Below, piece by piece: positions 6,296 through 46,039 of a DNA stretch of 64,000 nt (position 1 is its first letter; each line of letters starts with the position of its first letter). Both the position numbers and the translations under genes were made by a program. A model generated the notes under the pieces. The model did not search any database, was not told the DNA's origin, and saw only the letters and a program-made list of their open reading frames with translations. The stretch comes from an uncultured Ignavibacteriales bacterium (GTDB taxonomy: Bacteria; Bacteroidota; Ignavibacteria; T3Sed10-11): assembly GCA_964495085.1 (NCBI GenBank), contig CAZBUK010000011.1, forward strand, positions 844-64,843, read 5' to 3'.

Positions 6296-6312
6296 ACGCG
6301 AGGAGAGCTCTT

Positions 6313-6534
6313 ATGTTCGGCAATTTAGGCGCAACGGAAATAATACTTATTCTGCTCGTTATCCTTATTTTCTTCGGGGCGAGAAAAATACCGGAGCTGG
6401 CCCAGGGCCTCGGAAAAGGCCTGCGCGAATTTCGTAAAGCGGCCCGTGAAATACAGGACGACATAAACACGGAAAAGAAGAAGCTCGAAGACACTACCTC
6501 CGACGATAATAACGATGCGAAGAAAAATTCCTGA
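6313..6534 (+). CDS. tatA: Twin-arginine translocase subunit TatA/E
   Basis: [43 protein letters not shown] is the canonical TatA TM helix and amphipathic helix. Confidence 0.9.
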
Positions 6535-6539
6535 TGTGA

Positions 6540-29120: not shown

Positions 29121-32100
29121 TCATCCGCCTATGAGGATGAATCCACTCCAGAATGCCGGAAATGCCGTAAGATCATTTTGCAGCAGAGAGAGCTTAGCCG
29201 ATCGCAGCGCTGCCGGATAACTTTGTCCGGATAAAATATTCCGGTAGAATTCCACCATCAATTCACCCGTATGGCGGTCGTATACCTTCCAGAGGGAGAC
29301 GACGACATTTCGCGCGCCGGCAAACAGAATCCCGCGCGTGAGTGCGATCAGACCCTCTCCCCGGATCACTTCGCCAGCGCCGCTCTCGCAGCTGCTGAGC
29401 ACGACAAGATCCGCATCGAGATTCAGGTTGAACATTTCAGCGGCGAAAAGAAGTCCGTCTTCTCCGCTCCCTTCATCCTCAGGCCGGGCGAATACGATGC
29501 CGGATAGCCGCGGCTCAGTATCGTGTATGATGCCGTGGCTGGCGACATGGACGATCTGCGTAGCTGCCGCGTGCAATTTGAAGTTCTCTTCGCTCGCCGA
29601 GTCGAACAGGTAGCCGACGGCGGGAAGACCGCGCTGTTGAAAGAGACCGATGATATTTTCGAGTTCGAGGCGGGAGAACGGGAGCGGAGCGTAATTCCCG
29701 GTCTCCGTAAGGATCGACCGGTACTGATCGTCTGCCCGCATAGCGTGTGCCGTAATACCTACTTCTGCATCGTGGACCGCGGCGGCTTCATCTTCAAATA
29801 CGGGTGCAAATCCGACGAACGAAGAAGCATACCGTTCCGCGTCCTTCTGTCGGGTTGTTGAATTTCTATATAGTCTCGCTGCGTAATGGTACGACACCTC
29901 ATACTCCTCGATCAGATATTTCGTCTCTGCAAACCCGGATGTATGGAAACTCGCTTTCGGAAGATCTGCTATGAGGGCTTCGAACGGCAGGTAGAAAAGT
30001 TCACCGTCGGGAATTACAATCAGGCGCTCGATCTTTCCGAGCATCGATTTGACAGGGGTGATGAGATTTCTGTACAGAAACGCGGAGGGTTCAATGAACG
30101 AACCGCGATCGGCTTTCCGCAGACTTGCCGACAAACGCCGGATATTTGCCGATATCTCGCGCATATCTCCGCCCCGAAATACCTGGAGCGATTCGGCGGT
30201 GACGACGAACACCAGAAGCTCATCCGACCCGGCGAAGTAATGTAGAATCGCCGTCCTCGCATCCAATTCATTGCGGATCCGGTCGAGATCAGGCTGCATG
30301 AGCCGGTAGCGGATCTCGTAATATTCCGGATATTCTTTCTCGAATGTCGACAGGAGGAGATCGTACTGCGCCTTCTTTGTGTAATACAGATCGGCATGGT
30401 ACGCAAAGCGATCGTCTTCCGTCGGGCTCTTCACCATCTCCGTTTCATGATACACAATATCGTGCCGGAGATCGGATTCCAAGCCGAGCAGACTGTCGGG
30501 AATTCCCGCGAACGTGCGCGCGTCGAGATCGGCGAACGATTGCAGGAGTACCGACGACTTATTCGCTTCGGATAAGGCAAAAGCATCTGACAGGTAGATC
30601 CGGTCGCCGGTCGCATCATACAGGGCGAGTGCGGTTTCTATGCCTTCTTCGAAAACGAGGTGGCTCTCGCTCGCGATCAGGAGTCTGCTCTCGTCGCGCC
30701 GCAATCCCGTCTGCACCGACCGTATCAGATCGACGGCGGCAGTATACGTCTCAAGAGCCGTATTCAGATAGTGGATCTTCTCCGGATGAGAATCTGAGAT
30801 TGACCGCAGCACAAGGGCCTTCTTCCTGAGCGCGGTCAGCAATCTGTCGGCCGCATTCGTATGGATTTGCCGGGGGATGGCGAATATCGACGTATCGGTG
30901 AAGGACGGAGTGCCGGTGATAATCGCACGTTGATAAAACGGTAACGCACCGTTCGGGTCATTCCTGAGTTGGGACAGGTCGCCGAGATTGTTATATATCC
31001 GCACGAGCAGCCGGGTTTCGTTGTTCCCCGACAGGCGAAGATGATTTACGCCTTTCAGGTATAATTCTTCGGCAAGATCGTATTCGCCTTTTTTGCTGTA
31101 TGCAAATCCAAGATTGTTGTAGATGTAAGCGAACGTAGGATGTTCGGGAGAGAATACCCGTCCATAAATCCCGGATGCTTCCTGGAGGAAATGAATTGCC
31201 CGATCGTACTCACCGATATCGGTATAGTTGACGCCCATGTTCAGATATAGATTTCCCAGGTACTCCGGTCGGCCGGATGAGTTTGCGCCCCGAATCTCGA
31301 ACGCATTGTTATAGGCCTGACCGGCTGAAGTGTAATCCTTCAGATCGCTGTAGATGATCCCCATATGATTATATACCGTGGCGAGCCGGTCGTCGTCGGT
31401 TTCGAGAGAACTCTTATAGATCGATAATGCGCGGAATTGAAGATCGAGCGCGGCAGCGTGGTCGCCGGTATTGTTCCTGTATGCGCCGAGCGATGAATAT
31501 ATTTCGCCGACGCGGGGATGTTCTTCGCCGAAGTAATCACGGTAGATCTCGAGCGTTTTCTCGAGGTATACGATGGCAGAATCGAGTCTGCCGCGTTGAT
31601 TGAAATAGATGCCGATATTGCGGTAGGACTCGCCGGTCATATAATGCGTCGGTCCGAGCGTTACCCGTCGGATATCCGCCGCTTTCCTTGAGTACGCTAT
31701 CGCACTATCGAGATCTCCCATATAATAATGAACCACTCCGATGTTGTTCATCAGCCTTCCCGCAGCGGCGCCGAGCAGTTCGTTGTTGGCACGATATATC
31801 CAATGTGCTTTTCGGTAATAGACGAGAGCGTTATCGGGATCATTCTTATTCCGATAAACGATGCCGAGATTTGTATAGAGCGATGCAAGGAGCGGATGAT
31901 CCGGAGAGAGATCGCTTTCTGCGGCCTCGATCGCCGTGTTTATCTCCGAGAATGCGGAATCCAGTTCTCCCAATTGGATAAAGGCCGAGCTCATCCCGAT
32001 GCGGCTCCGGAGTCCGGCGTCATATGCACCCGTCTCATCGGCGAGCGATTGAGCCCGGCGATACTGAGATATCGATTCCTTATACGCTCCCGCACCGTAT

Positions 32101-32237
32101 AAAGATTGCGCTTCCTCCAGATGTCTGTTCAGGAGGACGGTATCGGCGGGAGAAATGTATTGAACCGCATTCGTGACAGAAGAAACGCCGATACAGAGAG
32201 CGATCAGGAAGAAGTGAAGCGATAAACGGGGACTCAA
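29121..32237 (-). CDS. Exported TPR-repeat + CHAT-domain (caspase-like peptidase) protein
   Basis: Signal peptide, ~450 aa of TPR repeats, C-terminal CHAT domain with the His/Cys dyad (VHVASHGI.. and DLVVLSSCESGAG). Confidence 0.75.
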   Translation of the reverse strand: MSPRLSLHFFLIALCIGVSSVTNAVQYISPADTVLLNRHLEEAQSLYGAGAYKESISQYRRAQSLADETGAYDAGLRSRIGMSSAFIQLGELDSAFSEINTAIEAAESDLSPDHPLLASLYTNLGIVYRNKNDPDNALVYYRKAHWIYRANNELLGAAAGRLMNNIGVVHYYMGDLDSAIAYSRKAADIRRVTLGPTHYMTGESYRNIGIYFNQRGRLDSAIVYLEKTLEIYRDYFGEEHPRVGEIYSSLGAYRNNTGDHAAALDLQFRALSIYKSSLETDDDRLATVYNHMGIIYSDLKDYTSAGQAYNNAFEIRGANSSGRPEYLGNLYLNMGVNYTDIGEYDRAIHFLQEASGIYGRVFSPEHPTFAYIYNNLGFAYSKKGEYDLAEELYLKGVNHLRLSGNNETRLLVRIYNNLGDLSQLRNDPNGALPFYQRAIITGTPSFTDTSIFAIPRQIHTNAADRLLTALRKKALVLRSISDSHPEKIHYLNTALETYTAAVDLIRSVQTGLRRDESRLLIASESHLVFEEGIETALALYDATGDRIYLSDAFALSEANKSSVLLQSFADLDARTFAGIPDSLLGLESDLRHDIVYHETEMVKSPTEDDRFAYHADLYYTKKAQYDLLLSTFEKEYPEYYEIRYRLMQPDLDRIRNELDARTAILHYFAGSDELLVFVVTAESLQVFRGGDMREISANIRRLSASLRKADRGSFIEPSAFLYRNLITPVKSMLGKIERLIVIPDGELFYLPFEALIADLPKASFHTSGFAETKYLIEEYEVSYHYAARLYRNSTTRQKDAERYASSFVGFAPVFEDEAAAVHDAEVGITAHAMRADDQYRSILTETGNYAPLPFSRLELENIIGLFQQRGLPAVGYLFDSASEENFKLHAAATQIVHVASHGIIHDTEPRLSGIVFARPEDEGSGEDGLLFAAEMFNLNLDADLVVLSSCESGAGEVIRGEGLIALTRGILFAGARNVVVSLWKVYDRHTGELMVEFYRNILSGQSYPAALRSAKLSLLQNDLTAFPAFWSGFILIGG

Positions 32238-32741: not shown

Positions 32742-33395
32742 ATGGGTCAGCCAGTAAGTATATTAATCGCCGATGATCACCCCGTGTTTCGGGAAGGATT
32801 GCTGAATATTCTCCAGAAGCGCAGAAACACAGGACCTGTCTATGAATCCGGCAACGGCGAAGAGGCGCTTGCTCTGATTCGTAAACATCATCCGGAAATC
32901 GTTTTGCTCGACATCGATATGCCGGGGTTGAACGGACTCGAAATCGCACGGACAGTTCAATCCGAAAATCTTCCATCCAGGATCATTATGCTGACAATGT
33001 ATAAAGAAGAGGACGTCTTCAACCGGGCGATGGACTATGGCGTATCGGGATTTGTCCTAAAGGAATCTGCCGTGACCGATCTGCTTCAGAGCATCTCGTT
33101 CGTGACAAGCGATAAATATTATGTAAGTCCGGTACTATCGGAATTCCTGATGCACCGCCTGCGAAGAGAGCAGAACTTCAACCTCTCACACCCGTCGCTC
33201 CATTTATTAACCGGTGCTGAGCGACGGATTCTCAAACTGATAGCCCTTATGAAAACGAGCAGGGATATTGCGGATGAGCTGTCCGTGAGTCCCCGCACCG
33301 TCGAAAATCACCGAATGAACATCTGCAATAAGCTCAACATACACGGCAGCCATGCCCTCATGAAATTCGCTCTCGAAAACAAATCATATCTTTGA
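32742..33395 (+). CDS. Two-component response regulator, NarL/LuxR family (REC + HTH_LuxR)
   Basis: VSILIADDHPVF..VLLDIDMPGLNG (phospho-Asp) receiver. C-terminal LuxR HTH (RRILKLIALMKTSRDIADELSVSPRTVENHRMNICNKL). Confidence 0.85.
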   Translation: MGQPVSILIADDHPVFREGLLNILQKRRNTGPVYESGNGEEALALIRKHHPEIVLLDIDMPGLNGLEIARTVQSENLPSRIIMLTMYKEEDVFNRAMDYGVSGFVLKESAVTDLLQSISFVTSDKYYVSPVLSEFLMHRLRREQNFNLSHPSLHLLTGAERRILKLIALMKTSRDIADELSVSPRTVENHRMNICNKLNIHGSHALMKFALENKSYL

Positions 33396-33656
33396 AGCTC
33401 GACGGATCTACCGGAGTACACGCAACGCTGCTTCAATCATTGTATACGTATCGAAAATTCCCCGCATTTAGAATTTCCGTGTTGTTAGCATGTCCCCGCC
33501 GATTATCTGACCGGATCGCTCCATATTAGTCCGGTTTTTCGGCGTAAACAAATTAGGTGGATCTACTCAGTCAAATCGGGTAATCATCTCTATTCCTTTT
33601 AATCATAGAACCTACCATCTTCGATAAAAACCGATTAACCTGGCGCTCACAGAAAT

Positions 33657-34010
33657 TTGAAATTATTAATCGTAGAAGATAACAGCAGTATGAGCGATCT
33701 TATCCGGGTGCTGCTCGAGGATGAGTTCGAAACCATACGCGAGATACAGGACGGGGATGAAGCTCTGAAGGAATTTACTGAACTTCATCCCGATTGGGTT
33801 ATCATGGACATCCAGATGAAACGATTGGATGGAATTAGCACAACCTCTCTTCTCAAGATGAAATATCCGGAAGCAAAAATTATCATTCTGACCAATTACC
33901 CGGACGGGGAGCTTCGCGCCGCCGCTCAGAAAGCGGGAGCGTTAGGATACGTGCTCAAGGAGAATATTTCCGAGGTCAGACAGATCATCCGGAATATGAA
34001 ATCCGGATAA
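33657..34010 (+). CDS. Stand-alone receiver (REC-only) response regulator, NarL-family-like
   Basis: TTG start (first start after the in-frame TAA). KLLIVEDN..VIMDIQMKRLDG..IIILT with no output domain. Confidence 0.7.
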   Translation: MKLLIVEDNSSMSDLIRVLLEDEFETIREIQDGDEALKEFTELHPDWVIMDIQMKRLDGISTTSLLKMKYPEAKIIILTNYPDGELRAAAQKAGALGYVLKENISEVRQIIRNMKSG

Positions 34011-34082
34011 CGGCCGGACGATTTGCCGGTATAGATCCATAACGAATTCCAGCAAGATTCACATTTCCAAAGGGAGAAGCGA

Positions 34083-35669
34083 ATGAGAACGAAGACTGCA
34101 TGTTTTCCGATTGCTGTGCTCATCCTGATGCTGCATGCCGTGATTCTTTATACTCAGGTGCCGCAGAAAATTTCATTCCAGGGGTATCTGACGGACGAAT
34201 CCAGCCTGCAGATGCTCGAAGACGGCGAATACTCCATGAGGTTTTCGCTCTATACGGACGAAGATCCGTCGACACCGCTCTGGACCGAAGAGCAGCAAGT
34301 ATCGGTGTTAAACGGAGTTTTCAACGTTCATCTCGGCGATGTTGAGCCGCTCATGCTTCCATTCGAAGTACCGTATTATCTGGGTATATCGATCGATGGC
34401 GGCGAGGAACTTTCGCCGCATATAGCTCTCGCCTCATCGCCATACAGCCTTCGTGCGGGCAATATAGACGATGGCCAGGTCGTGCGGAGTCTCAATGATT
34501 TACGGGATGACGTCGTTTTAGAGGCAGGCGAGAACATCTCGATCACGAGTGAGGAGAATGCCATCAGAATATCGGCGATCCTCGGAAACGATGTCGAGGA
34601 GGATGTGAATTGGAAGGCAGATGGTGACAATGTCTTTAATAAGAATACCGGAAACGTAGGTATCGGTACGGAGACGCCCGAGGCAAAGCTGGATGTACAG
34701 GGCGAATTGAGGGTTTCGGGCGGAGTGCGGATATCCGGAGGCAGCGCTGATGATGTGGATTTGTCGGGAACCGGTACAATTCTTTCCGTTACCACAACTG
34801 GAGCTAGCGCAACTGCCATATCCGGCAGGGCGGAGGGCAGTTTAAGCCCGGCTGGAGTATACGGAGTGAGCAACTCTTCAGGCGGCCGCGGGGTGTTCGG
34901 CGAAGCGACCCACGCGAGCGGTTCGACTGCCGGTGTTCGAGGTGTCACGGCTTCGAGCAACTCGAATGCGACCGGAGTTTTCGGTTTGGCAATTAGCGCT
35001 GATGCCGCTGGAGCAGGGGTGAAAGGCCAGAGCAACGGCATAACAGGTTACGGAGTGTGGGGGCAGGGAGGCACCGGCGGCACAGGTGTCCTGGGACAGA
35101 CACATTCTGCCACAAGTTATGGTGTATGGGCGTATAACAGCGGTACCGGAGTAGCTCTGCGTGCCGAGGGGAGCGGAACTCTGATCGAAGCATGGGATCT
35201 TTCGCCAGTCAACGTACGATTCAGGGTAGACAATAATGGAAATGTCACGGCTGACGGGACGTTCACCTCGCCCGCGGCGGATTTTGCGGAGATGCTGCCG
35301 GCTGCATCCGGTCTGGAGCCGGGTGATGTTCTGATAATCGGCAGGGAGGGACTGCTTGAGAAGAGCTCAAAGGCATTCGAATCGACAGTTGTCGGCGTTT
35401 ATTCGACCAAGCCGGCGTTTTTAGGGGGTGTTGAGATTCTAGAGGATCAGAATGATAAAATTCCCCTCGCCGTGCTCGGCATCGTCCCCGTCAAGGCAAG
35501 TGCGGGCAACGGCGCAATAATCCCGGGCGATCTTCTTGCAGCATCAGATATTCCCGGGCATGCAATGCGGGCAGGTTCAGACGCTCCGGTCGGCACGATC
35601 ATCGGCAAGTCAATGACCGGTCTTGAAGGAGGGACCGGAGTCATTCGGATGCTCGTCACTTTGCAGTAA
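34083..35669 (+). CDS. Exported paralogue 1 of a tail-fibre-like family: conserved N-domain, Gly-rich ~12-aa periodic repeats, distinct C-terminal domain
   Basis: Signal peptide then ISFQGYLTDE..DDGQVVRSLNDLRDDVVLEAGENISIT, shared with the ORFs at 36691, 37864 and 40472. One GNVGIGTETPEAKLDV motif. ~9 repeats of ..G.GV.G.s... AGGGAG RBS upstream. Confidence 0.7.
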   Translation: MRTKTACFPIAVLILMLHAVILYTQVPQKISFQGYLTDESSLQMLEDGEYSMRFSLYTDEDPSTPLWTEEQQVSVLNGVFNVHLGDVEPLMLPFEVPYYLGISIDGGEELSPHIALASSPYSLRAGNIDDGQVVRSLNDLRDDVVLEAGENISITSEENAIRISAILGNDVEEDVNWKADGDNVFNKNTGNVGIGTETPEAKLDVQGELRVSGGVRISGGSADDVDLSGTGTILSVTTTGASATAISGRAEGSLSPAGVYGVSNSSGGRGVFGEATHASGSTAGVRGVTASSNSNATGVFGLAISADAAGAGVKGQSNGITGYGVWGQGGTGGTGVLGQTHSATSYGVWAYNSGTGVALRAEGSGTLIEAWDLSPVNVRFRVDNNGNVTADGTFTSPAADFAEMLPAASGLEPGDVLIIGREGLLEKSSKAFESTVVGVYSTKPAFLGGVEILEDQNDKIPLAVLGIVPVKASAGNGAIIPGDLLAASDIPGHAMRAGSDAPVGTIIGKSMTGLEGGTGVIRMLVTLQ

Positions 35670-35750
35670 TAAAGCATAACCGTATGATTCCAGGCTTGAA
35701 TCTGCGATGTAATAGCATCAGGAATACTTTCGAATAATATGGAGGAACTC

Positions 35751-36647
35751 ATGCCAATGTTTACCTGGTCGGTCGTTTACACCGCAATATGCGTATGTGT
35801 TGCGGTTCTCTTTGCCTCGCAAGCGCGTGCGCAAGAGGGACTGACAGGGAGGATCGATGAACGCACGCCCGGCATATCATTCGCAGTCCCGGCCGGATGG
35901 ACCGCTTATAAAACGGAGGTTGGGTATCTGATCGCCTCGGAGACCGAGAAGGGCTTTGTTCTTGTGATGAGCCATGAGTTTAGTTCGATGAGCGAGTTAG
36001 AAAACGCTGCGCGTGAATCTATGAGTGATGATAACGGCACATCCCTGCGGCCGGATAGAGAACCGGAAAGATTTCTTTCCGCAGAATACGAAGGTATAGC
36101 GATGTACTATAAGGGGACCGTTGAATGGGTGGAAGCCCGAGCGTATGCGGTCGGTTTGATTTCGCCGTACGGCAGCGGCGTGACGATCCTCGCTGCCGTC
36201 GAGCCCCAGTCATTCACAGCAACATTTACAAGTACCGTGGACGATATCGCACGCGGGGTTGAATTCAGGCAACCCGAGCTACCTCCGGTCGATGAGCAAT
36301 GGAAAGCCGCATTAACCGGGATGCGTCTCACGTATATGCATACGTATTCAAGCGGCAGCTCGGGCGGTTTCTCAGACAGGATAGTTATTGATTTGTGTAC
36401 AGACGGCTCGTTTTCGTATTCCGGCAGCAGCAACCTGTCGATCGATACGGGAGGTGCGTACGGATACAGCCATGGAAAAAGCGGGGGAGCCGGAACGTGG
36501 GAGGTGTTGAACAATGGGGGACAGCCTGTATTGCGACTGATCTTTAACGATGGAACGGTCAGACAATACCGTATTTCATTGCAGGACGACCGGTTTTATC
36601 TCGACGATACAAGATATTTCAGGACTCACGATGCACCATGCAGGTAA
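35751..36647 (+). CDS. Hypothetical exported protein embedded in the paralogue cluster
   Basis: Signal peptide (MPMFTWSVVYTAICVCVAVLFASQARAQ), GGAGG RBS 5 nt upstream of ATG 35751 (the ORF is open from 35739). Gly/Ser-rich C-terminal half. No recognisable family. Confidence 0.55.
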   Translation: MPMFTWSVVYTAICVCVAVLFASQARAQEGLTGRIDERTPGISFAVPAGWTAYKTEVGYLIASETEKGFVLVMSHEFSSMSELENAARESMSDDNGTSLRPDREPERFLSAEYEGIAMYYKGTVEWVEARAYAVGLISPYGSGVTILAAVEPQSFTATFTSTVDDIARGVEFRQPELPPVDEQWKAALTGMRLTYMHTYSSGSSGGFSDRIVIDLCTDGSFSYSGSSNLSIDTGGAYGYSHGKSGGAGTWEVLNNGGQPVLRLIFNDGTVRQYRISLQDDRFYLDDTRYFRTHDAPCR

Positions 36648-36690
36648 ATGCATGCGGGTATTCTTTTATTCATAAAGCGAGGAAACGAAA

Positions 36691-37677
36691 ATGAAACGAA
36701 TGTCATTGTGTATGGGAATAATTCTCATGGCGATATCGGAAGCATTGTTATTCGGTCAGATACCTTACACCATCAGCTACCAGGGGTATCTGACAGATGA
36801 ATCCGGAACGCCGGTTTCCGATGGAGAATATAACATACAATTTTCGCTTTATACCGCAAATGATCCGCAAGAGCTTGTGTGGACGGAGATTCAATCAGTC
36901 GTCGTGACAAACGGTCTGTTCCATGTATATCTGGGAATTATCGAGCCGCTTTCGCCGGCTTTTGACGAGCAGTACTCCCTCGGAATTGCGATCGACGGAG
37001 GTGATGAGCTGTCACCGCGAACACCCCTCGCCTCATCTCCATACAGTTTACGCACCCGGGGGATCGATGACGGTCAGGTTGTGAAGAGTATCAACACTTT
37101 GAAAGACAGCGTCATACTTGAAGCGGGCGAGAATATATCCATCTCTGAGGAAGAGAACCGGATAATCATATCCGCTGCGGGAGGGAGTGAGAACGGAACT
37201 GAATTTCCGGAAGGCGGTGTAGTCCGTTCTATCAATGGACTAACCGATCATATCAATCTTGTCGGCGCAGACGGCGTGTCGGTCGGTTCCGTTGCCGATA
37301 CACTGTACATAAGCGCAGGTAATGCCCGGGTTATCTCCTCGGACTGGCAGTTATTTATAGGCAATAACTGGAGCGATGTGACAAACTTTTTTGGCAAGGA
37401 TCGAAGAACATACGAAATAGATGTACCGGAAATTACACAGAATGTTCTGGATCGAGGTATGGTACAGGTATCTGTAAGGTTCGGCGGCACTTCCAGTGTT
37501 ATACAGCCTTTACCCATCCTTCAATCGATAACTCAACAAAAGGAGCAACGTCTCGCATTTCATTTACGACTCGGGAAAATAGTGTTGGAATATTACAATA
37601 TCGGGGAATCGTCCGATCCGGGAACGATCAGCGGGGGAAGCAATCGCTATATGTATACGATCACCTCCGGGATATAA
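36691..37677 (+). CDS. Exported paralogue 2 of the tail-fibre-like family (short; distinct beta-rich C-terminal domain)
   Basis: Signal peptide + TISYQGYLTDESGTPVSDGEY..DDGQVVKSINTLKDSVILEAGENISIS, then a divergent ~190-aa C-terminal region. Confidence 0.7.
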   Translation: MKRMSLCMGIILMAISEALLFGQIPYTISYQGYLTDESGTPVSDGEYNIQFSLYTANDPQELVWTEIQSVVVTNGLFHVYLGIIEPLSPAFDEQYSLGIAIDGGDELSPRTPLASSPYSLRTRGIDDGQVVKSINTLKDSVILEAGENISISEEENRIIISAAGGSENGTEFPEGGVVRSINGLTDHINLVGADGVSVGSVADTLYISAGNARVISSDWQLFIGNNWSDVTNFFGKDRRTYEIDVPEITQNVLDRGMVQVSVRFGGTSSVIQPLPILQSITQQKEQRLAFHLRLGKIVLEYYNIGESSDPGTISGGSNRYMYTITSGI

Positions 37678-37863
37678 AGGTATTTACATGAAAATAATCA
37701 GGGACTGATCGGGCTTTTCTCATCGAATTCGTGGTTCCGAGCATGCTGTGTCTTATCGATGAAAATACAAACTTTTTATGGAACGATGGCAGTTTATTGA
37801 GAGGATCAAATCGAGGCGGAGGGTATTAAGCATATTTCACACTAACTAATCGTTGAGGGTACA

Positions 37864-40065
37864 ATGAAAAATATCTCGGTAATCCTCATGCTGTTGTCCT
37901 TCGTGCTCGTCGCACAGCCTGTCCCGGCCCAGGTTCCCCCTCATCTCTCGTATCAGGGTATACTCGTAGACGAAACCGGTACCGCAGTCGAAGACGGCAA
38001 TTATGACATTACATTTCGGCTCTATACGGAATCTATCGGATCGGATCCGATATGGACTGAAACGCAGAACGTTTCGGTTATCAAAGGACTGTTTACGGTT
38101 CTCCTCGGAACCGCTACGCCGATCGAGCTTCCCTTTGATGTGCCGTACTTCCTCGGCATTTCGGTCGGTGAAGGATCGGAGCTCACCGGCCGTATTCCGC
38201 TCACCGCGTCGGCCTACAGCCTCCGTTCAAAATCCGTCGACGACGGACAGGTAGTCAAGAGTCTCAATGATATAAAGGATGAGGTAATCCTCGAAGCGGG
38301 AGAAAATATCAGCATTACGCAGCAGGATAATAAAATCACCATCTCGGCTTCGGGAGGATCCGAGGAGGGTACAATCACCGGCGTGGTTGCCGGAGAAGGA
38401 TTGACAGGCGGAGGTACGAGCGGATCGGTAGATATATCGGTCGCCGACTCCGGTATCATCTCGGCAAAATTGGCTGCAGGTTCTGTGACGGCGGAGAAGA
38501 TCGCTGCTGGCGCAGCGGTTAAGAGTCTCAACGATCTCCGCGACGCGGTGATACTCTCCGGCGAGGGGGGCGCCACGATAACGACGCGGGGGGATACGAT
38601 TGTCATCAATGCAGGCAGCGGGGGGGATGGATCGGGGATCGAAGGGATTCAGAATACGAACAATACGCTTGATATTATTAACCCATCGGGTCCGACGACG
38701 ACCATAAATGTGAAGAGCGGTGGAATCGGTACGCAACATATTGCCGACGGCTCTATCACGCAAGAGAAGCTGGCATCCAACGCCATCAACGACGGTGATT
38801 GGATCATCGATGGAGACAATATGAGCTCCGGAGTAAGCGGATTTGTCGGTATAGGGCGAACCAATCGCTTGACCGGGTTGGAGGTATTCGGTATACGAGC
38901 ACCGTCTGCTGAAAATACCTGGGGAGGTATGTATATTGAAACATTACAAGCGACGGGAAGACCCTTCTACGGCTACGCGACGAACAACACTGCGATTATG
39001 TGGCATGAGTATAACAGCTCTGTCAATCAATGGCAACTGAACACCGGATCGGGTGTTCGGATTGCCGTCGAAAGATCGACCGGAAATATAGGGATGGGTA
39101 CGACAACTCCCTTGGAGAGGTTGGACATTGCCGGAGCCGTTCGAATCGGCACGACATCATCCTCGAACGCCGGAACTATCAGGTGGTCCGGAGCCGATTT
39201 TGAAGGACGCAAAGGGAGTCAATGGGTTTCGTTGACAGGCGTCTCCAGCTGGAATACATCGGGAAATAACATCAACTACACAACCGGAAATGTCGGCATC
39301 GGCACCACTACACCGGCATATCTTGCACATCTCCGCAGTTCCTCTCCTTCACTCATGCTGGAAAACACGGGTACTTCGGCGTCATTTGTCAGATTCCGCC
39401 GGTCAAACGACGGAGCGAACGACAATTATCTGGCTTTGGGCTCAAGCGGGCAGATGATTATGCGCGTCGGCGGTACGGACAGGATCACGGTTCTCAATGA
39501 CGGAAGGGTCGGTATCGGCACCGGCAGTCCCGAAACCATGTTTCAGATCCGGAATTCAGGCAGCGATATAGCGTACTCTCTGAAAGCGTCGAATTCCTGG
39601 ACTGCGCGAATACAGCAGGATGCCTCCAGCAATCTGACGATATGGAACGGCGGCCTGGAACGTATTCGCCTCCGGGCAAACGGGAATGTCGGTATAGGTA
39701 ATGATAATCCCTCCAACAGGCTCCAGGTGAGCGGGGATATGCAGGTAAGCGGAAAGGTGAAGCGTGAGTCGACCGGAAATAACAATGTTGTGCCGATCTG
39801 TTACGGTCAAATTAATTCTGCCGGTACTATTCAGAACGGTTCCGGCAACTTCACGGTGAATAGAACCGGTACCGGTGTATACCAAATCAATATTTCCGGT
39901 GAAAACGTTCTCTTTTCGAACTATACCGTGGTAGTGACAGCTATCGGTTCGTCTCCCGTCGTGGCAACATGGAGCAGTGCGAGTGGAAATTTAGTGGTTT
40001 ATATTCACAACATGTTCAGTTTTCGTACCGATAATCATTTTTCATTTACCGTCTTTAAACCCTGA
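37864..40065 (+). CDS. Exported paralogue 3 of the tail-fibre-like family (long; phage tail-fibre-type motifs)
   Basis: Signal peptide + HLSYQGILVDETGTAVEDGNY..DDGQVVKSLNDIKDEVILEAGENISIT. Downstream motifs ISAKLAAGSVTAEKIAAGAAV, HIADGSITQEKLASNAI and four G(N/R)(V/I)G(I/M)GT..P..L.V copies. Distinct ~90-aa C-terminal domain. Confidence 0.7.
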   Translation: MKNISVILMLLSFVLVAQPVPAQVPPHLSYQGILVDETGTAVEDGNYDITFRLYTESIGSDPIWTETQNVSVIKGLFTVLLGTATPIELPFDVPYFLGISVGEGSELTGRIPLTASAYSLRSKSVDDGQVVKSLNDIKDEVILEAGENISITQQDNKITISASGGSEEGTITGVVAGEGLTGGGTSGSVDISVADSGIISAKLAAGSVTAEKIAAGAAVKSLNDLRDAVILSGEGGATITTRGDTIVINAGSGGDGSGIEGIQNTNNTLDIINPSGPTTTINVKSGGIGTQHIADGSITQEKLASNAINDGDWIIDGDNMSSGVSGFVGIGRTNRLTGLEVFGIRAPSAENTWGGMYIETLQATGRPFYGYATNNTAIMWHEYNSSVNQWQLNTGSGVRIAVERSTGNIGMGTTTPLERLDIAGAVRIGTTSSSNAGTIRWSGADFEGRKGSQWVSLTGVSSWNTSGNNINYTTGNVGIGTTTPAYLAHLRSSSPSLMLENTGTSASFVRFRRSNDGANDNYLALGSSGQMIMRVGGTDRITVLNDGRVGIGTGSPETMFQIRNSGSDIAYSLKASNSWTARIQQDASSNLTIWNGGLERIRLRANGNVGIGNDNPSNRLQVSGDMQVSGKVKRESTGNNNVVPICYGQINSAGTIQNGSGNFTVNRTGTGVYQINISGENVLFSNYTVVVTAIGSSPVVATWSSASGNLVVYIHNMFSFRTDNHFSFTVFKP

Positions 40066-40471
40066 AGACCGATCCATCGATTCGAGAGCAATTATGTCAT
40101 CGTCTTCCTCCAGTTTGCGGTTCTGCTCGACTAGATAGAAATATTGCTGTACGGGGAGGAGAAATAGAGAAAAAGGTTGTCCTACACATAGCTTACTCGA
40201 TTCAGGTTATCGAGCGTTTGTTAACTGAAATATAGGAGGTGAAATCATACAACCGGCGTACCGGAATCCCATGGCTCTATAAATAACGGAACTTTGGGTA
40301 CATTTTTCCGGTTTGTACGGGAATGATTGCGGAAGGTACGGCGACGTCTGAACATTTCTGCGTCTGCATCGGTATATGCATACAAGGAAAGTTAAGCCTC
40401 AACACAACAGGTCCTGCCGCCGCCAAACAAACCCGCCACATTCCCGTCACCTTACTATCGGAAGGTACTAT

Positions 40472-41935
40472 ATGAAGCACGTCCTTATGGTCGTCGCCTT
40501 GTCTGTCTGTTTTTGCATTGCCGAATCATCCGCCGGTACACCGGCAAAGATAACATACCAGGGTATGCTCATGGCTCAGAATGGCTTGCCGGTCCCAGAC
40601 AACAATTACAATATTACGTTCAGTCTCTATGCCGCGCCGGATGCGGTCGAGCCTGTATGGTCCGAAACCCAATCCGTGACGGTCGTGAAAGGTTTATTCA
40701 ACGCCATACTCGGAAGCAGTGTTCCTTTCTCGGAGGAGTTCGATCAGGCATGTTGGCTCGGTCTGAAGCTCGGCGATGAGCCGGAAATGACTCCACGGAT
40801 AGAATTCACCTCCGTCGCGTATTCATTGAAAAGCCGGACGGTTGATGACGGTGCGATTGTCACTTCGAAGATCGCTAACTCCGCTATAACGGCGGAAAAG
40901 TTAGCTGTTGTTGAAGGGCCGAGTTCGGTAAGCCAGGTGCTCACCTGGAACGGGACTGGTCTTTCCTGGCAGGTTCCTCCCGGGGAGGGCGGATTACTGC
41001 TTCCGTATTCAGGGACGGCAAATCAGGGGGGTGCTGCTTTCGAGGTCAGCAATACGAACAGTGATGCGCTTCGCGGATCTACACAGTTCGGAAATGGTGT
41101 ATTCGGTTTCAGCACGGGAGGCGGAAACGGAATAAGCGGGTATAGTGAGACCGGGTTCGGTGTTATCGGATTTACAAACACCGGAATCTCCGGGATCTAC
41201 GGTGAGTCAAAGATAAACGGCGGCGCTGGTATATGGGGAAAAAATACGGCCGGTGCGGGTTCTTCAGGTATCTGGGGAGAAAGCCCCGCTGGAATGGGCG
41301 TAAGAGGGAACAGCACGTCCGGTACGGGTGTATATGGGAGTAGTAATTCCGGTTATGGAGTACGGGGACTTGTTTCGCAGAGCGGCACCGGAGTCTATGG
41401 GGAGAATACAAGCAACAGTGCAGGCGCGGGAGTGCAGGGGAGGGCAGACCACGGCAGCTCCGTCGGCGTACTCGGAATGAGCACGGCCGGAACCGGAGTC
41501 AGGGGATCGAGCAGCAGCAGTACCGGCGTTTCCGGGTCGTCTGTATCCGGCGTCGGTGTCCATGGACAGGGCCCCGTCGCAATGAAAGCAGAAGGGAATA
41601 CACTCCAGGATATCGGCAGCGGGGGATGGATGAAAGCGATGCTTCTCGTGAGGGATATAGGATTGAATGCACCTTACATTGAAAGGTGTTATAACGGGGT
41701 CACCGGAGCTACCGAAAGCAATTGTGGATTTAGTATCAGCCAGCCCGGGGGTGCAGGTCCCGTAAAAATAACCGCTCCGTTCAAAGTAGTCGATCGGTTC
41801 TTTTCGGTAACCTTGCTTCAGTCTGCGGTTCACGATATTGTTCCCAGCATTTTTTTCGACCAGGGAGATCTTTTCGGCAATACCGTGGTGGTCGCGACGG
41901 GTACGGATGCAAGCTTCTATCTGCTGATATACTGA
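40472..41935 (+). CDS. Exported paralogue 4 of the tail-fibre-like family (divergent N-domain; ~20 Gly-rich 11-12-aa repeats)
   Basis: The ORF is open from 40376, but Met33 (MKHVLMVVALSVCFCIAESSA, GGAAGG RBS 6 nt upstream) gives a signal peptide followed by KITYQGMLMAQNGLPVPDNNYNITFSLY.. homologous to the other three N-domains. Long G.GV.G.S repeat tract. Confidence 0.65.
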   Translation: MKHVLMVVALSVCFCIAESSAGTPAKITYQGMLMAQNGLPVPDNNYNITFSLYAAPDAVEPVWSETQSVTVVKGLFNAILGSSVPFSEEFDQACWLGLKLGDEPEMTPRIEFTSVAYSLKSRTVDDGAIVTSKIANSAITAEKLAVVEGPSSVSQVLTWNGTGLSWQVPPGEGGLLLPYSGTANQGGAAFEVSNTNSDALRGSTQFGNGVFGFSTGGGNGISGYSETGFGVIGFTNTGISGIYGESKINGGAGIWGKNTAGAGSSGIWGESPAGMGVRGNSTSGTGVYGSSNSGYGVRGLVSQSGTGVYGENTSNSAGAGVQGRADHGSSVGVLGMSTAGTGVRGSSSSSTGVSGSSVSGVGVHGQGPVAMKAEGNTLQDIGSGGWMKAMLLVRDIGLNAPYIERCYNGVTGATESNCGFSISQPGGAGPVKITAPFKVVDRFFSVTLLQSAVHDIVPSIFFDQGDLFGNTVVVATGTDASFYLLIY

Positions 41936-42015
41936 TTTCGGTGATGATTTCGAATGAGCCGGATTTCACTGACATCCGGCGGCACGGAAAATATTAACTA
42001 CCTAACGGAGGAATC

Positions 42016-42546
42016 ATGAAAAAAATATGGTTTGCAGTATTGAGCTTTACAGCTCTGGTGGCGCTCCAATCTTCTGTACTCGCACAGTATACTATATTGT
42101 ATAGTACCTTCGGTTCGGGCGGCGGCAGGACAGAAGGCTCATCCGTCTCCCTCCAGGGTACAATAGGACAATCGGTAGCAGGTTTTACGGAGAACGAATC
42201 GCATGCTGCAGGATCGGGATTCTGGTATGTTGTCCAATCGTCGATTACCACCGACGTAGAGCGTCTGCACGAAATGCTTCCACTCGAGTTTCGTATGGAT
42301 CAGAACTATCCGAATCCGTTCAATCCTTCAACGACCATCCGTTTCGCTCTCCCGCTGGAAGAGCACGTTACATTGGTCGTTTACGATCTTATCGGACGGA
42401 AAATCGCTATGCTTGTCGATGAACGGATGACGGCGGGAGAATATTCGGTAGTTTTCGATGCCGCGGGTGTCGCAAGCGGTTTCTATATATACAGAATACA
42501 GGCGGGATCGCATGTTACAACCCGGCGCATGATCCTCCTGAAATAG
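42016..42546 (+). CDS. Small T9SS-sorted protein (hypothetical ~70-aa mature domain + type-A CTD)
   Basis: Signal peptide. The C-terminus NYPNPFNPSTTIRFALPLEEHVTLVVYDLIGRKIAMLVDE..GFYIYRIQAG..RRMILLK is a T9SS CTD. Confidence 0.7.
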   Translation: MKKIWFAVLSFTALVALQSSVLAQYTILYSTFGSGGGRTEGSSVSLQGTIGQSVAGFTENESHAAGSGFWYVVQSSITTDVERLHEMLPLEFRMDQNYPNPFNPSTTIRFALPLEEHVTLVVYDLIGRKIAMLVDERMTAGEYSVVFDAAGVASGFYIYRIQAGSHVTTRRMILLK

Positions 42547-42629
42547 AGCCGGTACCGCCTGTCCGATTCCGAGACCGGCGGTTGATCCGGCGTTCGGACA
42601 TCTTTTCAATATACTGCGGAATTTCTCAC

Positions 42630-42983
42630 ATGAAAAATTTATTTCCGATGTTATTGTTTTTATCAGTTTCATTTCTTATGGTAACCTGTTCCCCCCGAAA
42701 GGAATCATCTATCGAACAGCCCGGGAAAATGGATCCATCGCTGCGTCTGCTGATATCCCGTTACGAACATGATCGGAGCGACGAAGTTATCGAGGTGCTC
42801 ATTGAACTCCACCGCGATCCTGACGGCGAAGCGCAGATACTGTTCCGGGAGTACAATCTCGAACTCGACGGCATGGAGGGAAAAATCCTTGCCGCGCGCG
42901 GCAGAGTTTCCGATATACGGCGAATAACTGCCTCCTCGCTCGTGAAACATATCGCCTTGAGCCAGAAAAGACAACCGTTATAA
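42630..42983 (+). CDS. Free-standing subtilase pro-region-like protein (putative propeptide/I9-type inhibitor or chaperone), lipoprotein-like signal
   Basis: Start taken at ATG 42630 (MKNLFPMLLFLSVSFLMVTCS signal; the ORF is open from 42582). The mature part aligns to the N-terminal pro-region of the downstream S8 protease: GKMDPSLRLLIS vs GKIDASLRLVMS, and ..VKHIALSQKRQPL vs ..RFIELAARRKPL. Confidence 0.6.
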   Translation: MKNLFPMLLFLSVSFLMVTCSPRKESSIEQPGKMDPSLRLLISRYEHDRSDEVIEVLIELHRDPDGEAQILFREYNLELDGMEGKILAARGRVSDIRRITASSLVKHIALSQKRQPL

Positions 42984-43015: not shown

Positions 43016-46000
43016 ATGGGTCTTTTAAGAAGCTTTCTCCGGAGAATATCGCGAATTTCGGGCGGTGGAGCGATTGCGGCCGTATGCTTAATCGCTGCCG
43101 GTACCTCGTTCGGTCAGACCAATGAAAAACTGGTCAGGGCATTGAGATCGGGTATGTTTTCCGGTGAATTTCAGATCAACCAACAGGCATATTCTCAGGA
43201 AGGGTTGCTCCGGCCGCAGGCTCACGGGAAAATCGACGCTTCGCTTCGGCTGGTCATGTCGCAGAACCACAGGATGATGAAGGCACGCCCGGGCGATTCC
43301 TACTTACAAGGTATCAGCCCGTATGCATTATCGGTCTCAGGTGACGATGATATACGCGCGGATGTTTTTATCCGAACAGAAGCCGGATTTTCTGCCGCTG
43401 TGCTGACCTCGCTCGGCGCCACGAGGATCGTGGAAGCGGGAGGCATTGTCAGTGCATCCGTACCTCTCGGCGGCATCGGGGCGTTGGCGGAGGATCCGAA
43501 CGTCCGGTTTATCGAACTGGCAGCCCGTCGAAAGCCCCTCAATGATGCCGGGAGGACCGATATCCGGGCGGATCTCGTCCACCAGGGGTTCAACCTCCCT
43601 GCCGCGTATAAGGGCGAGGGAGTGATTGTCGGCGTGCTCGACAGCGGCATCGATTTCACTCATCCGGATTTCTCGGATGAGAACGGAACACGAATACAAC
43701 ATCTGCTTGAATACACTACGACCGGTCAACTCGAGTGGTCGAAGACTCAGATCGATACGGACCCTACCTCGGTAACTCAGGGCGATCTCGACGACGGGGG
43801 AGGCCATGGAACGCATGTCGCAGGAAGCGCAACAGGCGGCGGCAAGCTTAACTCGATCTACACGGGCGTCGCTCCGAACGCGGATATAATCTTTGTGAAG
43901 GGAATGATCGACGGCGGCTTCAGCGATAACGCAGTCTTCGGCGGTTGCCAGTATATATTTGAAAAGGCTGATGCACTGGGTAAACCGGCGGTTATCAACC
44001 TGAGTCTCGGTAGTAATTTCGGACCGATCGACGGCTCGAGCTTATATGAGCAGGCATTATCGAACCTGACCGGACCCGGAAAGATCATCGTAGCGGCCGC
44101 CGGCAACGAGGGTTTTGATTTGATTCACGCAGGCGCTGTCTTACCGGCCTCGACGCAGAACGTCACGCTTCTCATAAGCGATAATCCGTCTCAGCTTTTT
44201 ATCAATATGTGGTACACGCCAGGGGTGATCTCTGATGTCGCGATCGGGGCTTTCGCTATCGATGAATCGGACGAACCCATCTATCTGGGGAACACCTCTT
44301 TCGTACCAGTCGGTTCGTTCATGAATCACACGCCGTTAACATCTGATGAAATCATACTCGGACAAATCGGAATCGACGCTCAGACAACGGCGGATCCCAG
44401 AAACGGCGACGGAAATATTATATTCGAGATCATCGGTGATCCGGATCAGGGAGTCGATATCTCGGAAATAATCTGGGTAGTGATCTATAACTCATCGTCA
44501 TCAGGCCGGTTCGATATGTGGTCATTCGGCGGAGAATTCTGGCCGGTAGTCGAAGGAATCCCGGGCGTGAACGAGATACCCGGCGATTCGCACAGCACGA
44601 TCGGTACACCGGCATCGGCCCACAAGATCATCGCAGTCGGTTCGTACGTGACGAAGACCACGTTTACCAATATCGATAATCAGATGCTCCAGTGGCGGAA
44701 TCCGGATCCGACACGACAGACCAACGATCTGGTGGTTCCGTCGATCGGACAGAAATCGTACTTCAGCAGCATCGGACCTACTCGGGACGGACGAATCGCG
44801 CCCGATATTTCGGCCCCCGGCGAGTTGATATTCTCTCCGCTTTCATCTCAGCTTGCTGAGGGAACGGGGTATCAACGTATACTCGTGGCTGAGGGGGGAA
44901 ATTATATCGGTTCTCAGGGGACCAGCATGGCATCTCCGCATGTAGCCGGAGTCGTCGCGCTCATGCTTCAGGTTCGGCCTGATCTCACATACGAGCAGAC
45001 TCTGGATATACTCCGGGAAACCGCCCGGGTCGATTCGTGGACCGGCTCGGTTCCGAACCACTCCTTCGGCGCAGGGAAGATCGACGCACATGCTGCGGTT
45101 ATGAATGCTCTCGGACTGAACGGCGGACCGGGTACGCCGACTACACTCAGATATTTCGATCCCGAAAGCGAACAGCGAACCTGGATTATCGATACCACAT
45201 TACCAATCGACAGCGGTTTCGTCTTCGGAACGAACAGATATTCGGATATGTCCAAAGCCACCGCATTTTCGCTCCCCGGCGGGGAGACCGAAGGAAGGAT
45301 TTCTGAAGTTAAAATCTGGTTCTCATATCGGAGAGACGGATTAACCGATCAGACATACAGCGTGGAGGTCTTTAACGGTTCGGCATCGTCCGGTCCTACC
45401 GGTGTGACTTTGTCGACGAAGGAATTCATGCTCGCAAACGTGAATGCGGATGCGGATCTACAGACGCCCGAGCAGGCGACGGTGCATACGTTCGATATGC
45501 CTGTTTCTGTGGGATCGGAATTTTTCGTCTCGGTTAATTTCGGCAGTTACGGAAGCGACGATTTCGGGAACGCCGGCATAGCGGCCACCGATCAGCTGGG
45601 GAGCAGGGTGCCCGAAGTATGGGAGCAATGGAGCGATGGAGAATGGCATAACCTCTCCGATGCATGGTTCGGCTCGGGAGCCGCTCCGGGTACGGGCATC
45701 GACGGATGGCATATGTGGATGGAAGTCGTTCTCGAAGGTCCGGTGAGTGTCCCGAATGACGGCTATACACTTCCGGTTTCTATTTCGCTCGAACAGAATT
45801 ATCCCAATCCGTTTAATCCGTCCACGGCTATCAGGTATTCGATTCCCTCGCCTTCGCGGGTGTCGCTCCGGGTATACGATATACTCGGACGGGTGGTGGC
45901 GGACCTGATCAACGGGGATGTTGAAGCCGGGACGCACACCGTCCACTTCGACGGCTCGTCTGTGAGCAGCGGATTATATTTCTACCGGCTCGAGACGGAT

Positions 46001-46039
46001 TCCAAGACCATCGTCAGACATATGATGCTGGTTAAGTAA
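43016..46039 (+). CDS. Subtilisin-like serine peptidase (S8 family) with N-terminal pro-region and T9SS C-terminal sorting domain
   Basis: Catalytic triad motifs VGVLDSGID (Asp), GHGTHVAGSA (His), GTSMASPHVAGV (Ser). The C-terminus NYPNPFNPSTAIRYSIP..LRVYDILGRVV..GLYFYRLE..RHMMLVK is a T9SS CTD. Confidence 0.88.
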   Translation: MGLLRSFLRRISRISGGGAIAAVCLIAAGTSFGQTNEKLVRALRSGMFSGEFQINQQAYSQEGLLRPQAHGKIDASLRLVMSQNHRMMKARPGDSYLQGISPYALSVSGDDDIRADVFIRTEAGFSAAVLTSLGATRIVEAGGIVSASVPLGGIGALAEDPNVRFIELAARRKPLNDAGRTDIRADLVHQGFNLPAAYKGEGVIVGVLDSGIDFTHPDFSDENGTRIQHLLEYTTTGQLEWSKTQIDTDPTSVTQGDLDDGGGHGTHVAGSATGGGKLNSIYTGVAPNADIIFVKGMIDGGFSDNAVFGGCQYIFEKADALGKPAVINLSLGSNFGPIDGSSLYEQALSNLTGPGKIIVAAAGNEGFDLIHAGAVLPASTQNVTLLISDNPSQLFINMWYTPGVISDVAIGAFAIDESDEPIYLGNTSFVPVGSFMNHTPLTSDEIILGQIGIDAQTTADPRNGDGNIIFEIIGDPDQGVDISEIIWVVIYNSSSSGRFDMWSFGGEFWPVVEGIPGVNEIPGDSHSTIGTPASAHKIIAVGSYVTKTTFTNIDNQMLQWRNPDPTRQTNDLVVPSIGQKSYFSSIGPTRDGRIAPDISAPGELIFSPLSSQLAEGTGYQRILVAEGGNYIGSQGTSMASPHVAGVVALMLQVRPDLTYEQTLDILRETARVDSWTGSVPNHSFGAGKIDAHAAVMNALGLNGGPGTPTTLRYFDPESEQRTWIIDTTLPIDSGFVFGTNRYSDMSKATAFSLPGGETEGRISEVKIWFSYRRDGLTDQTYSVEVFNGSASSGPTGVTLSTKEFMLANVNADADLQTPEQATVHTFDMPVSVGSEFFVSVNFGSYGSDDFGNAGIAATDQLGSRVPEVWEQWSDGEWHNLSDAWFGSGAAPGTGIDGWHMWMEVVLEGPVSVPNDGYTLPVSISLEQNYPNPFNPSTAIRYSIPSPSRVSLRVYDILGRVVADLINGDVEAGTHTVHFDGSSVSSGLYFYRLETDSKTIVRHMMLVK

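Follow-up and report, generated by a model that had tools for sequence, protein, structure and literature searches.

Mosaic adhesive trimer (MAT) proteins were defined by Caulton et al. in 2024 in the predator Bdellovibrio, with structures of the fibres; their surface localisation has been shown, as has glycan binding for one member (PMC10769870). Bdellovibrio MATs (Bd2133, Bd1334, Bd2439, Bd2734, Bd2740, Bd3182) combine a signal peptide, a beta-rich N-terminal domain (N-domain), a repetitive shaft and interchangeable tips; some members end in an autocleaving chaperone, and a genome holds several paralogues, some of them under successive locus tags (bd0704/0705, bd3266/3267). Their ligands are surface glycans of other bacteria (PMC10769870), and within the family surface display and glycan binding have been demonstrated for Bdellovibrio members only. 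The N-domain was reported to have no structural homologue in the PDB, and the surface element that it binds was stated to be unidentified (PMC10769870); a 2025 review adds nothing further on what the N-domain binds. Supplementary Table S3 of Caulton et al. 2024 also lists MATs from the Fibrobacterota-Chlorobiota-Bacteroidota (FCB) group, Omnitrophica and others (PMC10769870). The sequence features named above for Bdellovibrio MATs, from the signal peptide to the multiple paralogues, recur in the locus described here, which lies in a 64,000-nucleotide (nt) stretch of contig CAZBUK010000011.1 from an uncultured Ignavibacteriales bacterium (hereafter the window). Four tandem genes of the window, P1 to P4, probably encode Sec-exported, homotrimeric surface fibres of the MAT superfamily that resemble phage tail fibres. 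The fibre family itself is already known (2024) and its FCB members have already been listed; a small secreted partner gene that accompanies MAT genes in several phyla appears not to have been reported before. The array comprises the following genes and protein parts (aa, amino acids; T9SS, type IX secretion system).

34083-35669, plus strand: P1, open reading frame (ORF) of 528 aa
P1, first part: signal peptide, aa 1-24; N-domain, aa ~25-126 (nt 34155-34460); collar repeat, aa 128-166
P1 shaft, aa 167-399: one 'GNVGIGT' unit and seven Gly-rich GVxG repeats
P1 C-terminus, aa 400-528, nt 35280-35666: predicted intramolecular chaperone of the Peptidase_G2/phi29 gp12 type
35739-36647, plus strand: orf302, ORF of 302 aa between P1 and P2, lacking the N-domain
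36691-37677, plus strand: P2, ORF of 328 aa
P2 parts: signal peptide; N-domain, aa 23-123; two collar repeats, aa 125-210; beta-rich tip of ~118 aa, aa 211-328
37864-40065, plus strand: P3, ORF of 733 aa
P3 parts: signal peptide; N-domain, aa 23-124; two collar repeats; long shaft; C-terminal tip of ~95 aa
P3 shaft, aa ~326-612: five 'G(N/R/F)(V/I)G(I/M)G' units
40472-41935, plus strand: P4, ORF of 487 aa
P4, first part: signal peptide; divergent N-domain, aa 22-125; 'IANSAITAEKL' repeat instead of a collar
P4, second part: Gly-rich shaft, aa ~209-365, with 11 G(V/I)xG repeats; tip of ~110 aa
42016-42546, plus strand: partner, 176 aa, T9SS cargo
Partner parts: signal peptide; N-module of ~55 aa (nt ~42088-42240); linker; type A T9SS sorting domain, aa 98-173

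Public gene calls give the same boundaries for P1-P4, including the 40472 start of P4. Each N-terminus reads as a charged n-region and a hydrophobic h-region with the conserved block directly after it, and in the AlphaFold2 (AF2) model of P2 the signal region forms a helix (residues 2-20). Over residues 1-170, the four proteins share 37-54% pairwise identity (BLASTP E 1e-24 to 6e-63; P4 against P1, 3e-25), a similarity far beyond chance, while the best short DNA segments between paralogues reach 62-77% identity, a divergence showing that the paralogues are old. The shared block comprises two modules, namely the N-domain of ~100 aa (P1 ~25-126) and a collar repeat of ~40 aa, 'GQVVKSLN.L.D.V.LEAGENISI', which P2 and P3 carry twice and which unrelated proteins, P0034 among them, carry as tandem copies. 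P4 retains the N-domain, at 37-42% identity to the other paralogues, and lacks the 'GQVVKSLN..L.D.V.LEAGENISI' module. A sequence-only reading of this DNA had described four tandem ORFs with signal peptides and a conserved N-terminus, the fourth being divergent, and had asked whether they would align with one another; the ORFs are present, all of them align over residues 1-170, and P4 diverges as described. Its single N-terminal domain of ~140 aa holds as a conserved block, yet the block is made of two modules rather than one domain.

A Pfam scan of all five array proteins (P1-P4 and orf302) returned nothing meaningful, and there is no Pfam model for the N-domain. P1-P4 all match the NCBIfam model NF053851, 'Bdello_MAT_N, mosaic adhesive trimer family chimeric fiber protein', with E values from 1e-5 to 3e-4: P1 at 3.7e-5 as the full protein and 2.8e-5 without its signal peptide, P2 at 1.1e-5 (1.8e-6 for the mature domain), P3 at 2.3e-5, and P4 at 2.8e-4 (6.7e-5 for the mature domain). 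None of the four reaches at least 60 bits over the 162 positions of the model, the mark of its curated subfamily, and because of these low scores the link was retested on family members and on domains freed of the signal peptide. In a family set made up of the four window proteins and 38 database homologues, 41 of the 42 match NF053851 (best E 6.2e-13), as do 10 of 10 mature domains, these at positions ~13-76 of 162 (E 3.5e-9 to 2e-3). Since both sets match, these profile comparisons relate the N-domain by homology to the first half of its Bdellovibrio MAT counterpart and place it outside the curated NF053851 subfamily. As in MATs, a signal peptide is followed in P1-P4 by a beta-rich N-domain starting at residue ~22-25. 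The sequence-only reading had assigned the N-domain to no known family and had named a match to a characterised adhesin as the finding that would speak against it; such a match is what was obtained (NF053851, PMC10769870), to an adhesin family that has been described and has FCB members listed. Of the structural checks that it proposed, AF2 and Foldseek were run on P2. Residues 25-118 are modelled by AF2 as all-beta with a predicted local distance difference test (pLDDT) score above 90; the N-domain is, in the model, a beta-sandwich of ~100 aa. A Foldseek search of this model against the PDB returned nothing at E <= 1e-3, with generic Ig/Fn3-like sandwiches as the sole neighbours, and against viral models it gave weak matches of low template-modelling score to minor tail proteins and nothing specific. 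The lack of a significant PDB neighbour agrees with the same statement made for the MAT N-domain (PMC10769870).

Past residue 170, the remainders have in common short repeat motifs alone (E 1e-4 to 1e-5 or worse). Gly-rich 'GVxG' repeats occur in both P1 (7 copies) and P4 (11 copies), 'GNVGIG' repeats in P1 and P3, and the second collar repeat in P2 and P3; the tails are thus mosaics of common shaft repeats and unique ends. P1 is similar over residues 179-254 to the Bd2133 shaft of known crystal structure (PDB 8ond, E 1.4e-4) and to 8ol4 (E 9e-4). The P3 shaft matches the PHROG tail-fibre families phrog_18345 (1.4e-7) and phrog_9942 (2.2e-6), and P3 residues 326-688 are 27-29% identical to tail fibre genes of cyanophages and pelagiphages (tblastn). 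The shafts of P2 and P4 have no direct match of this kind. P2, P3 and P4 end in different tips of ~95-120 aa with no detectable relatives of known structure. P0095 (570 aa), whose first ~480 residues align with P3, ends in a sequence with 60% identity to the P2 tip; the presence of this tip on a P3-like protein is evidence of tip swapping. P3 itself has a full-length homologue, P0177, at 50% identity, and seven further members of the family, 610-870 aa long and differing in their N-terminal portions, share the P1 tail. The four proteins therefore have four different ends, and tips and tails recur elsewhere, the mosaic and exchangeable arrangement that characterises MATs. A constant N-terminal module on variable, tail-fibre-like C-termini had been proposed from the sequence, and this architecture is what we find; the C-termini had further been called unrelated, which holds for the diverging remainders and fails for the short shaft repeats. 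That account of the locus was also incomplete: orf302 and the partner had been overlooked, and the P1 C-terminus is a predicted cleavable chaperone, not a receptor-binding tip.

This assignment of the P1 C-terminus comes from profile comparisons. A profile of the P1 tail built from eight homologues matches the pre-neck appendage of phage phi29 (6qz9, E 7.5e-5; 3gqh, 1.1e-3; 3suc, 1.5e-3), and the Pfam family PF11962 (Peptidase_G2) is matched by two of the eight homologues (E 2.4e-4). D400 and E403 of P1 are aligned with the D and E of the phi29 motif 'SDFAEYFE' and are invariant in all 8 aligned homologues; the chaperone fragment in 3gqh starts at the D of this motif, and 3suc has Q in place of the E. 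The match spans the first ~100 residues of the gp12 chaperone, at E ~1e-4. As aligned, the P1 C-terminus is a phi29 gp12-type/Peptidase_G2 chaperone with a predicted autocleavage site between A399 and D400. The last ~130 aa of P1 thus align to the autochaperone of phi29 gp12 (3suc, 3gqh, 6qz9; PF11962), with the D and E of 'SDFAEYFE' kept, whereas the remainder of P1 bears no relation to the gp12 beta-helix and P1 is a secreted cellular protein. Since its tail matches phi29 gp12/Peptidase_G2, P1 parallels the S74-type MATs with a different class of chaperone.

Several features set the locus apart from Bdellovibrio MATs. The window N-domain has ~100 aa, and its alignment to the mature Bdellovibrio model covers only the first ~60 positions and scores under the cutoff; the P1 chaperone belongs to the Peptidase_G2/phi29 gp12 type, for which the published list of tips has no entry (PMC10769870), instead of to S74; the bacterium is of FCB type, as judged from its T9SS domains and from nearest homologues in Ignavibacteriaceae, and has a T9SS; and the four-gene array comes with two conserved accessory genes, which are unmentioned in PMC10769870. 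The FCB MATs of Table S3 (from Saprospiraceae, Salinivirga, Kordia algicida, Dokdonia and Patiriisocius) belong to the same superphylum, are of similar size (417-854 aa) and carry varied tips, including collagen-like, beta-sandwich, S74-like and invasin/intimin types (PMC10769870). Compared here by description, they are single examples given with no locus context, arrays or partner. P1 adds a chaperone class to the MAT family, phi29 gp12/Peptidase_G2 in place of S74.

Altogether, these findings lead to a model in which P1-P4 would be exported by Sec and then trimerise. The constant N-domain of ~100 aa would lie next to the cell and dock the fibre, with the tip pointing outward, and the shaft would be assembled from shuffled trimer-forming modules, namely collar repeats, 'GNVGIGT' beta-prism units and Gly-rich beta-helix repeats. 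In P2, P3 and P4, the small, distinct, beta-rich tips would bind the ligand. In P1, the chaperone would promote trimer formation and afterwards release itself by cleavage at A399|D400, so that the fibre would end distally in the Gly-rich beta-helix. The four paralogues would in this way provide four binding specificities per cell on a common attachment module. Paralogy, the MAT-type N-domain, shafts similar to those of phages and Bd2133, a G2 chaperone with the conserved D and E, mosaic tips and a three-component locus are what the locus displays, whereas trimer formation, surface display, the type of ligand and anchoring by the partner are inferred.

A number of points weigh against this reading of P1-P4. 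The NF053851 scores of the window proteins, 20.7-27.9 bits, are well under the curated 60-bit cutoff, and the match covers positions ~2-76 or 13-76 of 162, leaving the second half of the Bdellovibrio domain unmatched. PDB sequence searches gave no match for P2, P3 or P4, the P2 tip is modelled at moderate confidence (pLDDT 50-80), and the case for trimerisation rests on module homology. P1-P4 are 328-733 aa long against ~1000 aa for Bdellovibrio MATs, and they have no evident outer-membrane route, as they lack a T9SS C-terminal domain (CTD). The function of the reference system is itself soft, because deletions of Bdellovibrio MATs bring no significant reduction in predation efficiency (PMC12428579).

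Given shafts held in common with phage tail fibres, a P1 chaperone domain known from the phi29 appendage and the weak Foldseek matches to viral minor tail proteins, one could take the array for the tail-fibre cassette of a decayed prophage, a tailocin or a phage-like particle instead of a set of cellular adhesins. This appears very improbable. P1-P4 bear Sec signal peptides, which phage virion proteins lack, and a search of 2.9 million viral contigs gave no relative of the N-domain, nor did it match anything in GenBank phages (tblastn), where matches to P3 start only at residue 326. The absence of the N-domain from viral collections, together with the restriction of phage matches to the P3 shaft, points to the N-domain as a cellular invention placed on phage-like shafts. 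A Pfam scan of 20 neighbouring ORFs (within ~14 kb on either side, three distal ones included as well) found regulatory proteins (response regulators and a histidine kinase), a protease, T9SS cargo and housekeeping genes, and no capsid, tail, terminase or integrase gene. The sequence-only reading had likewise noted no phage structural genes, no integrase and no T9SS CTD on P1-P4, and none turned up in the scans of the array and these 20 neighbours. GC content is unremarkable across the region, and the same array organisation is seen in relatives. With SAICAR synthetase, an amidase-family protein and Mrp-type antiporter subunits in the window, the setting is chromosomal, not viral.

What the fibres bind is a separate matter. 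The same architecture could serve ligands other than cells, such as particles or polymers for attachment during foraging, self-aggregation and biofilm formation, or phages caught by decoys, and we consider this somewhat unlikely. It would suit a very large family spread over lineages not known as predators (Ignavibacteriota, Chloroflexota, Verrucomicrobiota, Patescibacteria), the flanking T9SS cargo of hydrolase type (an S8 peptidase), a Y_Y_Y-type sensor kinase such as polysaccharide-sensing systems have, and the small predation phenotype of MAT knockouts (PMC12428579). Yet the sole experimental ligands of the family are bacterial surface glycans, the non-Bdellovibrio examples of Caulton et al. 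are enriched for predatory or epibiotic lifestyles (PMC10769870), and Saccharibacteria, which are obligate epibionts, have giant members. Nothing in the window discriminates between the two classes of ligand. If the fibres mediate cell-cell recognition as in Bdellovibrio, arrays of this kind may mark predatory, epibiotic or aggregative lifestyles in lineages seen only in metagenomes.

The N-domain family is very large and still without a Pfam model. An exhaustive profile search returned 86,782 cluster representatives at E <= 1e-3, a list whose weak end may hold repeat-only matches because the profile also spanned the collar repeat, and 12,261 at E <= 1e-30. A scan of one genome per species for the N-domain gave 48 loci, from Ignavibacteriota, Chlorobiota, Bacteroidota, Rhodothermales, Eisenbacteria, Desulfosudaceae, Verrucomicrobiota, Chloroflexota and Patescibacteria/Saccharibacteria, the closest relative being from Ignavibacteriota at 50% identity. 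In all 48, the N-domain is N-terminal and directly follows the signal peptide, and complete ORFs measure ~290-2548 aa. The Saccharibacteria/Patescibacteria loci (L020-L030; for example L030 9860-17503 and L024 1195-7545) hold giant N-domain proteins of 1,100-2,548 aa, most of them with no small partner adjoining; in L021 and L022, a protein of ~270 aa with the partner N-module lies 1.5-1.8 kb upstream.

The partner gene lies 80 bp downstream of P4. Its CTD matches Por_Secre_tail/TIGR04183 at E 2.3e-10, with 40 bits against a cutoff of 23, and its N-module is built of three pseudo-repeats of ~19 aa (S-x-N-Y.. / ..GQ.. / ..GFW), with the consensus SANYxIxRxVxxxGGGxAxSANYxxxxTIGQxxxGxxxSxxYxxxxGFW; it belongs to no Pfam or NCBIfam family. 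Linkage between fibre and partner genes was tested with a hidden Markov model of the N-module alone, free of signal peptide and CTD. In the forward direction, 25 of the 48 genome loci seeded with the MAT N-domain contained the N-module, and in 21 of them it lay no more than 200 bp from the MAT ORF; downstream DNA is missing from another five MAT-seeded loci. In the reverse direction, a MAT gene was present in all four partner-seeded contig sets from FCB and WOR-3: in L049, L051 and L054 it adjoins the partner directly, and in L052/L053 it lies 1.7 kb upstream. In metagenomes, where the query was the Chloroflexota subset of N-modules, a MAT gene lies directly upstream in 7 of the 7 partner-seeded loci with enough upstream DNA, the other 4 being too short on that side to judge; a metagenome scan with the single window partner N-module gave no match. 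The linkage of fibre and partner genes thus holds across several phyla and in both search directions.

The C-terminus of the partner changes with lineage. It is a T9SS CTD in FCB, WOR-3 and Eisenbacteria and an extra domain of ~100 aa in Verrucomicrobiota, while in Chloroflexota the partner is a short protein with a conserved '(W/Y)LP(V/L/I/M)(I/L/M)x(K/R)' C-terminal tail. The Chloroflexota partners (L032-L047 and L060-L068; for example L036 11277-11648 and L060 3911-4204) are ~90-125 aa long and end in sequences such as VWLPMIAK, TWLPVILK or VYLPIVVR. No transmembrane segment follows this tail, which looks like an undescribed C-terminal sorting or docking signal.

It is conceivable, and we propose it tentatively, that the partner is the missing surface anchor of MAT fibres, its three-repeat module binding the three-fold N-domain end and its C-terminus sorting the complex. 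Docking of the N-terminal end of the fibre to the cell surface by the partner would be the simplest account of three observations: the N-domain is common to the paralogues, a single partner goes with a whole array, and the partner has a surface-sorting signal. In the window, the partner would be exported and tethered by the T9SS, and its N-module would bind the N-domain of the fibres. The sorting route might then differ by lineage, possibly through a T9SS CTD in FCB, WOR-3 and Eisenbacteria and through '(W/Y)LPxIx(K/R)-COOH' in Chloroflexota. Small genes placed immediately 3' of a fibre gene are also found in the pairs of phage tail fibre and assembly or adaptor protein. PAAR proteins cap the three-fold axis of trimeric VgrG spikes, and the three pseudo-repeats of the partner N-module could, by analogy, cap a three-fold axis as well. 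Unlike Tfa, gp38 and PAAR, with which it shares no sequence or confident structural similarity, the partner has a signal peptide and sorting signals.

Anchoring by the partner has points against it too. The AF2 model of the partner is confident for the CTD and gives a pLDDT of 42-58 for the N-module alone, no fusion of partner module and MAT occurs among 331 collected proteins, and the MAT array of L056 shows no partner in the 21 kb seen. The partner could instead be a fibre assembly chaperone like phage Tfa, or T9SS cargo unrelated to the fibres, a pair of options we regard as rather doubtful. A chaperone would explain the position directly 3' of the fibre gene, which mirrors the phage order of fibre and chaperone, and would fit both an N-module not confidently folded alone and the fact that most MATs accompanied by a partner have no intramolecular chaperone. 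Set against this, the partner has its own signal peptide and a surface-sorting C-terminus that varies with the envelope of the lineage, and because of this variation its final location is expected to be the cell surface; moreover, a single partner serves arrays of 4-5 fibres that have only the N-domain in common, and a partner also stands beside a fibre with its own chaperone (the S74 MAT in L049). As for unrelated cargo, the two-way linkage statistics exclude chance co-location. The literature search, which left most subscription journals uncovered so that absence is unproven, yielded no identified MAT anchor and no link of MATs to the T9SS.

Were the partner indeed the anchor, one could understand why a huge mosaic family keeps its N-domain constant and how fibres without a CTD reach or stay on the surface, possibly hitch-hiking through the T9SS; the open question in Bdellovibrio of what the N-domain binds would be answered as well. 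A pair of fibre and small sorted protein conserved across phyla makes the attachment of the N-domain a directly testable hypothesis.

The second accessory gene, orf302, probably starts at 35751, since the public gene call is 298 aa long. It matches no Pfam, NCBIfam or PHROG family and has 82 homologues of ~290-300 aa, the named ones from Bacteroidota. Its product is secreted or membrane-tethered and of unassigned fold, and within this lineage the gene is a conserved accessory to MAT arrays. Related contigs show variations on the same theme: an orf302 homologue, a MAT, a partner and four more MATs in L058; an orf302 homologue followed by four MATs in L056; and a short orf302 homologue, a partner and a MAT in L054. 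Because contigs seeded with orf302 carry such arrays, the tandem grouping of 4 to at least 5 fibre genes characterises the lineage and is not peculiar to the window; MAT-type fibres thus form conserved arrays of this size in uncultured FCB bacteria. Directly upstream of the orf302 homologue and five-MAT array of L058 (see also the L059 context) lies an RVT_1 reverse-transcriptase gene of 520 aa (5901-7463), which could belong to a diversity-generating retroelement (DGR) diversifying a fibre tip or to a group II intron, and which has no counterpart in the window. The window array was also considered as a DGR target and rejected as such, with no DNA repeat resembling a template/variable repeat pair in 33500-42700 and no reverse transcriptase in the Pfam scan of the 20 ORFs.

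Around the array lie the following genes.

27625-29022: T9SS-sorted protein with weak RHS/YD-repeat matches, upstream of the regulators
29121-32237, minus strand: TPR-CHAT protein of 1,038 aa, immediately upstream of the regulators
32742-33395: LuxR-type response regulator, upstream of the array
33657-34010: stand-alone receiver protein, upstream of the array
42582-42983: ORF of 133 aa, lying between the partner and S8 subtilase genes; its product has a hydrophobic segment at the N-terminus and may be a lipoprotein; no family match
43016-46039: T9SS-sorted S8 subtilase, a few genes downstream of the fibre/partner pair
47753-50674: Y_Y_Y/HisKA_3 sensor kinase, downstream, at the far end of the same-strand gene run

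A T9SS CTD (Por_Secre_tail/TIGR04183) is found on none of P1-P4 and on five neighbouring proteins, the partner and four others, so that several T9SS cargo proteins surround the array. The TPR-CHAT and RHS/YD-like proteins have no obvious link to the fibres. A promoter and terminator scan of the locus gave a signal no better than shuffled sequence. The Y_Y_Y/HisKA_3 kinase is of the class that pairs with NarL/LuxR regulators, and the regulators at 32742 and 33657 may, with the kinase at 47753, control the block of fibre and T9SS-cargo genes. The regulators beside related arrays differ, with a GAF-HisKA kinase in L056 and an extracytoplasmic function (ECF) sigma factor and a Ser/Thr kinase in L054. 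The 133-aa ORF may, by its position, encode a protease propeptide or an inhibitor-like protein. A T9SS-sorted S8 subtilase likewise lies downstream in two partner-seeded contigs (L054 8530-11535 and L049 3664-11082), a recurrence that hints at a wider conserved neighbourhood, in which the subtilase is possibly a processing protease.

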